Assembly: GCA_001821395.1 (NCBI GenBank)
Contig: MHLM01000001.1
Coordinates: 1 to 64,000 of the forward strand
DNA length: 64,000 bases
Origin: Candidatus Lloydbacteria bacterium RIFCSPHIGHO2_02_FULL_50_18
GTDB lineage: Bacteria > Patescibacteriota > Minisyncoccia > Phycocordibacterales > UBA6899
Direction: 5' to 3'
The notes under the pieces are model-generated. The model had not been told where the DNA came from. It made no database searches and saw nothing but the letters and a program-made list of their open reading frames with translations. The stretch's first letter is position 1. Each line of letters opens with the position of its first letter. The position numbers and the translations under genes were made by a program. Positions 5,307 through 8,069 of this stretch are shown here, one piece after another.

Positions 5307-6242
5307 ATGTCACTCAAGGCTGTTAAAAACAAAATAAAAAGTATCGACAAGACCCGCCAAGTTACGAAGGCGATGGAGGCGGTTTCTGCCGTGAAGATGC
5401 GTAAAAGTCAGGCGAGCGCGATCAGCGTCCGCCCCTACGCACTTTCCGCGCTCAAAATACTCCGTAGCATCTCGGGATCGATCGAAGTGACCAATCATCC
5501 GCTGACCGTTGTGCGACCGATCGCGCGCACTTGCCTCATCATCATTTCGGGTGATAAGGGACTGGCAGGGAGCTATGGTTCATCGCTGTTGAAGCAGGTC
5601 TATAAATTCATGGTCGAAAAAGATCTTACGAGTACTAACACAAGTCTTATTTGTGTCGGAAAGAAAGCATATGAGCATTTCAATAAGCGCGGCTTCGAGA
5701 TCATCGCACATTACGAAAAATGGAGCGATACGATCAATTTTGGTAATGTTGAACCGCTCGCACGGAAAGCGAAGGACCAGTTTGAAAGTGGTCGCGTCGA
5801 CCAGGTATTCATCGTCTACACGAATTTTGTTTCCACATTGAATCAGCTTGTCTACGCGCGACAGTTGCTTCCCGTGACATGGAAAGGTGTTGAAGAAGTG
5901 GTGCGCGGGATAACGCCGACAAAGGGAAAGTTTTCCGAGATCGGACGTGATATTGATAAAAAAGATCCGGTACGAGAATACTCCTTTGAACCGAACGCAG
6001 AATCTGTGCTCACGGGCTTGATTCCTACGCTATTTAATGTACAAATATATCACTCCGTACTTGAGGCAAATGCATCCGAACATTCCGCCCGCATGATCGC
6101 CATGAAGAATGCTTCGGATAATGCAAAGGAGATATCGCGAAGTCTAAAATTACATTTCAATAAAGTCCGCCAAGCTGCGATCACGAGAGAGGTCTCTGAG
6201 ATCGTTGGAGGCATGGAATCAATGAAAGTCGTTGACGCATAA
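5307..6242 (+). CDS. atpG: ATP synthase F1 subunit gamma
   Basis: N-terminal MSLKAVKNKIKSI..TKAMEAVSAVKMRK and the C-terminal helix are typical of gamma. Confidence 0.95.
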   Translation: MSLKAVKNKIKSIDKTRQVTKAMEAVSAVKMRKSQASAISVRPYALSALKILRSISGSIEVTNHPLTVVRPIARTCLIIISGDKGLAGSYGSSLLKQVYKFMVEKDLTSTNTSLICVGKKAYEHFNKRGFEIIAHYEKWSDTINFGNVEPLARKAKDQFESGRVDQVFIVYTNFVSTLNQLVYARQLLPVTWKGVEEVVRGITPTKGKFSEIGRDIDKKDPVREYSFEPNAESVLTGLIPTLFNVQIYHSVLEANASEHSARMIAMKNASDNAKEISRSLKLHFNKVRQAAITREVSEIVGGMESMKVVDA

Positions 6243-6267
6243 ATTAATTAATCATCAATATTTACGT

Positions 6268-6630
6268 ATGCCTATTATTACAAAAGAAGATATCATCGAC
6301 GCGATCGACGAGAAGAACGAGAATCGACTCGATATGCTCACTGATTTCTGGCAGTTGCAGGTCGAAGAGGAGGGGGGAAAAGAGTCGAAGAATCTTGTTG
6401 TTTATACTTTTACGTGCGCAAAGATGCTTTATGGTGCAAAAGCATATCAGGATACGCTCGATTGGCTTGATGCTGTCGGCCTCGAGATCGCCAAGCTTTT
6501 TGGTGAAGAGGGGGAGCAGTATGTCGCTTTCATCGAGAACGAAGATATTGAGAATCTGCGTATGGAGGCACTTGATAAGAGCAGCATTGAGGAGGAGGAA
6601 GAAGAAGACGATTTCGGCGACGACGAATAG
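6268..6630 (+). CDS. Small highly acidic hypothetical protein inserted between atpG and atpD
   Basis: ORF 6232..6630 (TTG start). The first ATG is at 6268. C-terminus is [16 protein letters not shown]. No recognisable family and no clear SD. Confidence 0.5.
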
Positions 6631-6668
6631 CGCAGGACTTTTTACACATCAAGCGACTACTAACACAT

Positions 6669-8069
6669 ATGCAAACCAAGACAAAAACAGAAATGCAGAC
6701 AGGGACAATAAAACAGATCATCGGTGCTGTCGTGGATGTGCATTTTCCCGATGGAGTTCCCGAAGTCTACACTGCGCTTGTTGTAACAAGTACTAATGAC
6801 GGCAAGACGAAGAGCACCGTGCTTGAGGTGGCTTCGCATCTCGGCGGGAATCAGGTCCGTTCTATCGCAATGGAGTCGACCGATGGACTTCGTCGGGGTG
6901 ATGTGGTGACCTCAACAGGTAAGCCGATGCAGGCCCCTGTCGGTATCAATGTGCTTGGACGTATTTGGAACGTCCTAGGAGAGGCGATCGACAACGAACC
7001 GATGCCAAAGGATCTTTCATATGCAGGGATTCACCGTGCAGCACCAACGTTCAAAGAACAGTCCACAAAAACAGAGATATTTGAAACGGGCATAAAGGCG
7101 ATCGACCTCATGACGCCGTTCATCAAAGGCGGCAAGGTCGGGCTCTTTGGAGGCGCCGGCGTGGGGAAGACCGTGCTCATTCAGGAACTTATTCGTAATA
7201 TTGCGACCGAGCATGGAGGTTACTCTGTCTTTGCCGGTATCGGAGAGCGTACGCGCGAAGGCAACGACCTCTATTACGAAATGAAGGATTCCGGTGTGCT
7301 CGCGAAGACCGCACTTTGTTTTGGTCAGATGAACGAAGTTCCTGGTGCTCGCGCACGTGTCGGGCTTGTCGGTCTCACGATGGCGGAGCATTTTCGCGAT
7401 GTGATGAAAAAGGACGTGCTCCTGTTCATGGACAATATTTTCCGATTCACGCAGGCAGGTTCAGAAGTATCTGCACTCTTGGGTCGCGTCCCATCGGCGG
7501 TGGGATATCAGCCGACCCTTGCAGAGGAAATGGGTAAACTCCAAGAGCGCATCACGTCCACCGCAGACGGTTCCATTACCTCGGTACAAGCAGTCTACGT
7601 TCCGGCAGACGACCTTACCGACCCGGCACCTGCAACAACCTTTGCACATCTTGATGCGACCGTCGTGCTCTCACGCCCGCTCGCCTCACTCGGTATCTAT
7701 CCCGCTATTGATCCGCTTGAGTCTTCATCGCAAGCACTCGACCCCGTCATCGTCGGAGAAGAACATTACAATGTCGCGACAAAGACCAAGCAAGTACTCC
7801 AGCGCTACAAGGATCTACAGGACATCATCGCCATCCTTGGTATCGAAGAACTTTCTGATGACGACAAGATGCTCGTGTATCGCGCGCGCAAGATTCAGAA
7901 ATTTCTTTCTCAGCCGTTCTTCGTCGGGGAAGCATTTACTGGTACTCCCGGCAAATATGTTCCGCTCGCTGAGACGGTCCGCTCCTTGAAGGAGATCCTT
8001 GAAGGAAAGCATGACGACAAGGAAGAGCAGGCTTTCTACATGAAAGGCACGATTGACGAAGTTGCTTAG
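6669..8069 (+). CDS. atpD: ATP synthase F1 subunit beta
   Basis: Walker A GGAGVGKT and the DELSEED-like region (EELSDDD). Confidence 0.97.

Follow-up and report, generated by a model that had tools for sequence, protein, structure and literature searches.

The atpG-X-atpD region of the ATP synthase operon

The DNA analysed here, called the window, is a stretch of 64,000 nucleotides (nt) from Candidatus Lloydbacteria bacterium RIFCSPHIGHO2_02_FULL_50_18 (contig MHLM01000001.1, positions 1 to 64,000). It carries on its + strand a complete F1Fo ATP synthase operon with the gene order atpB-E-F-H-A-G-X-D-C, in which X is an additional open reading frame (ORF) and the subject of this study. The genes were identified from the ORF list, by Pfam searches and by tblastn together with precomputed Pfam annotations in syntenic loci of relatives (numbered L001 onwards below). 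Pfam gave direct calls, and atpB, atpE and atpA were assigned via the syntenic loci. The same three lines of analysis showed that the operon order given in an earlier note, which a model had made from the sequence, was correct.

The atpG gene (5307–6242, + strand) encodes the 311 amino acid (aa) gamma subunit, with an isoelectric point (pI) of 9.7, and matched the Pfam family ATP-synt over its full length (E = 1.3e-85). An AT-rich spacer of 25 nt (6243–6267, +) separates it from X (6268–6630, +), which encodes an acidic protein of 120 aa with a pI of 4.1 and was characterized by its homologues, their alignment, selection, codon usage and an AlphaFold2 (AF2) model. After a further spacer of 38 nt, delimited from the sequence (6631–6668, +), follows atpD (6669–8069, +), whose product, the 466 aa beta subunit, matched ATP-synt_ab_N, ATP-synt_ab (E = 6e-73) and ATP-synt_VA_C. 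Both the ORF list and the sequence confirmed the extra ORF between atpG and atpD and its acidic C-terminal tail, to which the earlier note had drawn attention. The 25 nt spacer has no Shine-Dalgarno-like motif, and such a motif is likewise absent before every atp gene of the window. Neither promoter-like nor terminator-like sites were found on the + strand from atpG to atpC, the X region included, which fits cotranscription of atpG, X and atpD and weakly suggests it.

The remaining genes of the operon are all on the + strand. The atpB gene for Fo subunit a (~1832–2575) showed 53–87% identity to Pfam ATP-synt_A genes in the syntenic loci; its ORF opens at 1754, with translation probably starting at ATG 1832 (MEEGFHV...). 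The atpE gene (2617–2844; subunit c, 75 aa) is homologous to ATP-synt_C genes in L001 and other loci, and atpF (2863–3315; subunit b, 150 aa) matched ATP-synt_B (E = 1.6e-13). The atpH gene (3319–3717) encodes a short form of delta (132 aa, pI 9.5) that matched OSCP (E = 1.9e-17), and atpA (3739–5304; alpha, 521 aa) was 77–92% identical to ATP-synt_ab genes of the syntenic loci. A spacer of 135 nt (8070–8204), non-coding by the codon statistics of ORF 8069–8251, lies between atpD and atpC (8205–8438). The latter encodes an epsilon subunit of 77 aa consisting of the beta-sandwich only, with a match to ATP-synt_DE_N over residues 1–77 (E = 7e-24).

X is a genuine, lineage-restricted gene

X is a real gene that is restricted to one lineage and under purifying selection. 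A search of 5.8 billion proteins recovered 19 homologues with 41–98% identity, annotated only as 'hypothetical protein'. They are 118–121 aa long, the sole exception being a 148 aa variant with an aberrant C-terminus, and they can be aligned over their full length, with 18 positions invariant (E7, D8, D11, K58, Y60, D62, W66, D68 and R98 among them) and about 30 nearly so. Codon alignments gave a proportion of nonsynonymous differences (pN) of 0.08–0.31 and of synonymous differences (pS) of 0.75–0.89, the synonymous sites being saturated. Among 117 codon sites, the third position was variable at 112, the first at 56 and the second at 47. The same alignments revealed that X evolves only slightly faster than gamma of the same genomes, indicating comparable constraint.

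The codon usage of X is that of its neighbours. The codon log-odds were 0.51 in frame and −0.36 and −0.73 in the other two frames of the same strand, and the in-frame value falls within the range of the atp genes (0.28–0.55). The GC content at third codon positions (GC3) was 0.54, similar to that of the neighbouring atp genes. By contrast, ORF 8069–8251 in the atpD-atpC spacer had codon log-odds of 0.07 and a GC3 of 0.35, indicating that it is not coding. This ORF had no family match in Pfam or NCBIfam, and the only part of it that tblastn matched in a relative was 16 residues long and overlaps atpC in a different reading frame.

Translation of X starts at the ATG at 6268, because Met1 is invariant across 20 homologues and most relatives have a stop codon 2–3 codons upstream of it. 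The TTG at 6232, which the earlier note had offered as a possible start, is rejected on these grounds. A chance intergenic ORF or a mis-assembly would be suggested by the missing ribosome-binding motif before X, though the atp genes have none either. The identity and retained length of the homologues, the low pN with variation mostly at third codon positions, the in-frame codon log-odds equal to those of the atp genes, and a confident structure model (see below) all speak against X being such an artefact, and we regard that explanation as excluded.

X stays beside atpG in all loci with known context

The genomic context of X was available for 15 distinct loci (the window, L001–L011, L016–L018 and L020). 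In each of them X shares the strand of atpG and lies 17–58 nt after it. The earlier note had named absence of the ORF from syntenic atp operons of related genomes, or coding statistics like those of intergenic DNA, as what would speak against its claim; the synteny just described was found instead, together with a pN far below pS and in-frame codon log-odds that match the atp genes.

What follows X varies. In the window, L005, L006, L007, L010, L011, L016, L017 and L018, it is followed by atpD or by atpD and atpC. In L001, L008 and L009, which form one clade (95% bootstrap), grpE-dnaK-dnaJ comes after X. In L002–L004, X is followed by an 18-codon relic of the 5′ end of atpD and then by unrelated sequence, and in L020 no atpD was present in the 440 nt available past X. 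The operon has been broken at least twice, independently, and each break lies 3′ of X, with X staying with atpG.

L002–L004 carry further marks at this region. In L004, a 69 aa ORF between atpA and atpG (451–660) starts with MSLKSVKNKI, a duplicate of the 5′ end of atpG, and the ORF after X (2028–2288) starts with MQTKTQNTKERKGTIKGI, which is the relic of the 5′ end of atpD; L002 and L003 are alike in both respects. These duplicated and relic ends record a rearrangement in which the atpG-X block was moved or copied. Separately, the atpA matches in L006 (5601–7036; Parcubacteria GW2011_GWA2_47_7) are split into residues 1–73 and 144–521 with ~80 nt of unrelated sequence between the two pieces, which may reflect a gene disruption or a fault in the local assembly.

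The X family is very small: searched exhaustively with a profile, 1.84 billion representative proteins yielded six true clusters and one artefact caused by a repeat protein. Among 185,579 species genomes X was present in six, of which four are titled Candidatus Lloydbacteria and one Parcubacteria group. The bacteria concerned are ultrasmall and uncultured, and their genomes came from samples of glacier-fed streams and groundwater. Scans of genomes and metagenome contigs showed no copy of X outside an atp context, the metagenome contig scan adding one further short X locus only. Relics or second copies of X were seen neither in the loci without X nor elsewhere in the window.

Predicted fold and family relationships of X

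The AF2 model of X, built from a 20-sequence alignment, had a predicted local distance difference test score (pLDDT) of 88 and a predicted template modelling score (pTM) of 0.81. It consists of six predicted helices (residues 6–14, 20–34, 40–56, 60–78, 83–89 and 92–113) followed by a disordered acidic tail, in which a hydrophobic and usually aromatic residue is kept amid the acidic run (DFG, DYN, GFE or DMG). X is highly charged throughout and has no hydrophobic stretch, as judged from the sequence with no dedicated transmembrane predictor. The nearest folds to the model were small binders of peptides or proteins that resemble tetratricopeptide repeats (TPRs), namely Fis1, the kinesin light chain TPR, FLU-TPR, Get4 and Hif1, and weak sequence matches of the family were to TTC7_N and RNPP_C. 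In the model, the fold looks loosely TPR-like.

The statement of the earlier note that X has no recognizable family was borne out by the Pfam, NCBIfam and PDB-sequence searches. X itself had no Pfam or NCBIfam match, and nothing significant was found for the 20 members in Pfam, NCBIfam, PHROGs or PADLOC. The profile search against PDB sequences returned only matches at chance level, and Foldseek against viral structures gave nothing below E = 0.3. Two weak database hits were seen. The family phrog_5209, of unknown function, matched 6 of the 20 members (best E = 6e-4), which may be compositional; a GajB helicase model matched 7 of the 20 (best E = 7e-5), which is probably compositional for an acidic protein of 120 aa.

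Searches aimed at components of the ATP synthase were equally negative. ATP-synt_DE (PF00401) matched neither X at E ≤ 1 nor the 20 members at E ≤ 5, and with respect to delta/OSCP (PF00213), X matched neither the profile nor the fold of the N-terminal six-helix bundle. Zeta (DUF1476) and IF1 were unmatched in the Pfam scan of the 20 members (E ≤ 5) and in the PDB profile search, and Atp11 and Atp12 (PF06644, PF07542) were not among the Pfam matches of these members at the same threshold.

Relatives without X and other insertions in the atp operons

Loci without X were reached by walking outward along the gamma homologues. In L014 and L015, whose gamma subunits are 61% and 59% identical to that of the window, atpG adjoins atpD directly. 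In L013 (gamma 65% identical), a non-coding gap of 226 nt lies between the two genes. This gap contains imperfect inverted repeats of 42 nt that are 76% complementary and flank 127 nt (L013 6930–7140), and they could be the scar of a small mobile element or a structured RNA. In a neighbour-joining tree of gamma and alpha, L013–L015 fell outside the group formed by all X-bearing loci and L012, with deep nodes poorly supported.

A different orphan protein fills the slot between atpG and atpD in L012 (6883–7242), in L022 (about 4879–5237) and also in L023. The slot protein of L012 and L022 has 119 aa, no acidic tail and only two relatives in the databases, and the L022 copy is frameshifted. Compared with X, it gave an hhalign probability of 0.8% and a hidden Markov model (HMM) score of 4.6 bits, which was equalled or exceeded by 32 of 2000 shuffles. 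Its AF2 model had a pLDDT of 50, too low for use.

Other junctions of the operon also vary in the clade. One Lloydbacteria sublineage has a gene for a NYN-domain (nuclease-like) protein between atpA and atpG (L012 4108–5874, L022 3312–3875), beside which L012 carries three further unannotated ORFs. The atpD-atpC junction, non-coding in the window, contains ORFs in relatives: a gene of the 23S_rRNA_IVP family in L012 (8746–9102), an 84 aa ORF in L014 (8350–8604), a hydrophobic 63 aa ORF in L016 (8958–9149), a 59 aa ORF with a hydrophobic N-terminus in L018 (5364–5543) and a 105 aa ORF in L022 (6709–7026).

These insertions bear on the main rival explanation, according to which X is a passenger gene. 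X would have entered the atpG-atpD spacer once, in an ancestor of the clade, with a role unrelated to the ATP synthase, and would have been retained for the strong constitutive expression of the operon and because its excision risks harming essential neighbours. Unrelated small genes do recur at the junctions of these operons (the NYN gene with its three ORFs, the 23S_rRNA_IVP gene, the ORFs of 59–105 aa and the orphan of L012 and L022), the inverted-repeat element of L013 sits in the very slot of X, and the sister lineages live without X. No feature of the subunits that follows the presence of X was found, either. Against a passenger stand the place of X beside atpG in each of the 15 distinct loci, kept for long enough to saturate synonymous sites, its retention with atpG through two independent operon breaks, a constraint comparable to that of gamma, and the lack of any copy seen outside an atp context. 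We hold the passenger explanation to be a substantial possibility, without calling it probable.

Short delta and epsilon subunits

The earlier note had described delta and epsilon of this operon as truncated, and this was confirmed. The 132 aa delta of the window matches only positions 66–170 of the 172 in the OSCP profile, and the 77 aa epsilon has no C-terminal helical domain and no match to the C-terminal part of ATP-synt_DE. Aligned to the window proteins, the X-less loci L013, L014 and L015 have a delta of 130–132 aa and an epsilon of 75–77 aa. The corresponding lengths in L012, with its different slot ORF, are 133 and 77 aa. A minimal delta (~130–134 aa) and an epsilon of 75–77 aa were common to every examined locus having those genes, with or without X, and they look like a trait of the ATP synthase of this clade.

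The shortening of delta and epsilon is thus older than X or independent of it, because the X-less relatives and L012 share the same short forms. The suggestion of the earlier note that X replaces functions lost with these subunits is unsupported, since L013–L015 are equally short and have no X. For the same reason, and given that X has no similarity to either subunit, X as a split or compensating part of delta or epsilon was rejected.

The short epsilon also invites another explanation by analogy, in which X would be a supernumerary inhibitor of the F1-ATPase that arose after epsilon had lost its inhibitory C-terminal helices, as a regulator of hydrolysis comparable to zeta in alpha-proteobacteria, IF1 in mitochondria and AtpTheta in cyanobacteria. 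Consistent with this, epsilon is here a beta-sandwich only, and X is small, helical and flexible at one terminus. A new inhibitor has appeared before in a lineage with a truncated or non-inhibitory C-terminal domain of epsilon (PMC9317440), and patescibacterial ATP synthases possibly run in reverse, their control being an open question (PMC11665869). On the other side, epsilon is just as short in the relatives that do not carry X, and the Pfam scan of the 20 members matched neither IF1 nor zeta nor the C-terminal domain of epsilon. Known F1 inhibitors work by inserting a helix, basic or amphipathic, where alpha, beta and gamma meet. The EELSDDD loop of beta is acidic and would repel the flexible end of X, which is purely acidic too, and for this reason a hydrolysis regulator is disfavoured. 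We consider it improbable.

Other features of the subunits are also shared. The beta subunit has a Thr/Lys-rich N-terminal extension, and relatives without X have the extension too. Residues ~53–66 of alpha (window about 3895–3940) form what we take to be an acidic insertion of ~14 residues in the N-terminal barrel domain, relative to E. coli alpha; relatives have a segment similar to this acidic stretch whether or not they carry X.

A possible role of X in the F1 sector

X may be an accessory of the F1 sector that acts in assembly or regulation, as its position and its acidic TPR-like architecture suggest. We infer this role from the invariant adjacency to atpG, the retention of X through the two breaks of the operon, the gamma-like constraint, the lack of an intervening promoter-like or terminator-like signal and the acidic TPR-like architecture. 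The strongest support is positional, namely an adjacency to atpG that has remained unbroken over a time saturating synonymous sites, and gene position is what links X to the ATP synthase. That X is functionally tied to the enzyme is, in our assessment, quite possible and not far short of an even prospect.

A specific mechanism can be proposed. X would be a soluble protein made from the atp operon right after gamma. Its acidic body of helical repeats and its flexible acidic tail, with the hydrophobic residue as an anchor, could dock on a basic subunit. Gamma (pI 9.2–9.8) and delta (pI 8.1–10) alone among the subunits are strongly basic, and gamma would be the more likely partner, with delta as the alternative. 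As an escort or assembly factor, X might maintain freshly synthesized gamma in solution until it is enclosed by the alpha3beta3 ring; alternatively, X might remain on the enzyme as an extra subunit. The role of gamma escort, taken by itself, is a tentative proposal that we judge unlikely to hold in this exact form.

A broader version would make X an unrecognized supernumerary component of F1Fo, associated with gamma in the rotor or central stalk and acting in assembly or in the control of rotation of an enzyme whose delta is minimal and whose epsilon has no C-terminal domain, with the slot protein of L012 and L022 as its fast-evolving, tail-less orthologue. If this were true, ATP synthases of Lloydbacteria would generally have a 'slot protein' encoded between atpG and atpD. 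We regard this version as rather doubtful.

Several observations weigh against an F1-accessory role. The X family is extremely narrow, with its six clusters and six genomes. L013–L015 have no X despite a near-identical subunit architecture, and an enzyme of this type can therefore do without X. The subunits have the same pI values, termini and insertions with and without X, so that no feature of theirs follows its presence. The atp operons of the clade are unusually permissive and tolerate unrelated insertions at several junctions, and X has no detectable similarity to known ATP synthase subunits, inhibitors or assembly factors. Finally, two breaks would both fall 3′ of X by chance with a probability of 0.25.

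Nearly all Patescibacteria (Candidate Phyla Radiation, CPR) keep an F-type ATP synthase, and most are without a respiratory chain; the direction in which the enzyme works, ATP synthesis or the reverse, and the way it is controlled are open questions (PMC11665869). In this clade the enzyme is reduced: delta is short, and epsilon lacks its regulatory helices. X offers a clonable candidate for a new partner in its assembly or regulation. Should X bind F1, the F1 gene block would contain a gene for a new accessory protein. Should it not, X would be just a conserved orphan gene carried along in a strongly expressed operon, illustrating that such operons can be permissive to insertion.

Neighbouring genes

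Just upstream of the atp region, the product of window 38–850 (+) resembles the C-terminal part of an antiporter-like membrane subunit of the NuoL/M/N type, as seen by reading the sequence, with no family search made. In L013, a fused Complex1_30kDa/NiFe-hydrogenase large-subunit gene (1–1553) lies two genes upstream of atpB. Together these suggest a membrane-bound hydrogenase or a complex-I-like module beside the ATP synthase genes in these Parcubacteria. Downstream of the operon, an S-adenosylmethionine (SAM) riboswitch (RF00162, 58 bits, E = 7e-11) was found at 10482–10586 (+) in an ordinary arrangement; the gene behind it (10782–11834) is presumably metK, judging from its sequence.

Comparison with known systems

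The literature was searched for ATP synthase accessories of Lloydbacteria or CPR bacteria and for ORFs located in the atpG-atpD interval, and it yielded nothing relevant. Zeta, IF1, AtpTheta, Atp11, Atp12 and the chloroplast PAB/BFA proteins are not known to be encoded between atpG and atpD, and no relationship in sequence or fold is known between X and the first five of these.

Partial likenesses to X can nevertheless be drawn. The zeta subunit (DUF1476) of the alpha-proteobacterial F1Fo resembles X in being small (~100 aa), soluble, all-helical and restricted to a lineage. It is a supernumerary inhibitor of the F1-ATPase, in an ATP synthase in which the C-terminal domain of epsilon does not act as an inhibitor (PMC9317440). 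AtpI/UncI, AtpZ, AtpQ and AtpR are, like X, non-core genes of limited lineages inside F- or N-type atp operons. Their products are hydrophobic membrane proteins linked to Fo or the c-ring, and the genes lie at the 5′ end of the operon or beside Fo genes. X differs from them in being hydrophilic, with an acidic pI and no hydrophobic segment, and in lying between the F1 genes atpG and atpD.

In function, the role proposed for X would be that of Atp11 and Atp12 (ATPAF1/2) and of PAB and BFA, which are soluble holders of unassembled F1 subunits. However, these proteins have no sequence or fold match to X and bind beta, alpha or gamma through folds unlike that of X. In architecture, Fis1, FLU-TPR, the kinesin light chain TPR and Hif1/NASP resemble the model of X in their antiparallel helical hairpins and their size, and chaperones of the Hif1/NASP type bind basic proteins with TPR-like helices and acidic stretches. 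Accessory genes in atp operons are already known as such, and X can be placed beside them as a lineage-specific, operon-embedded candidate accessory.

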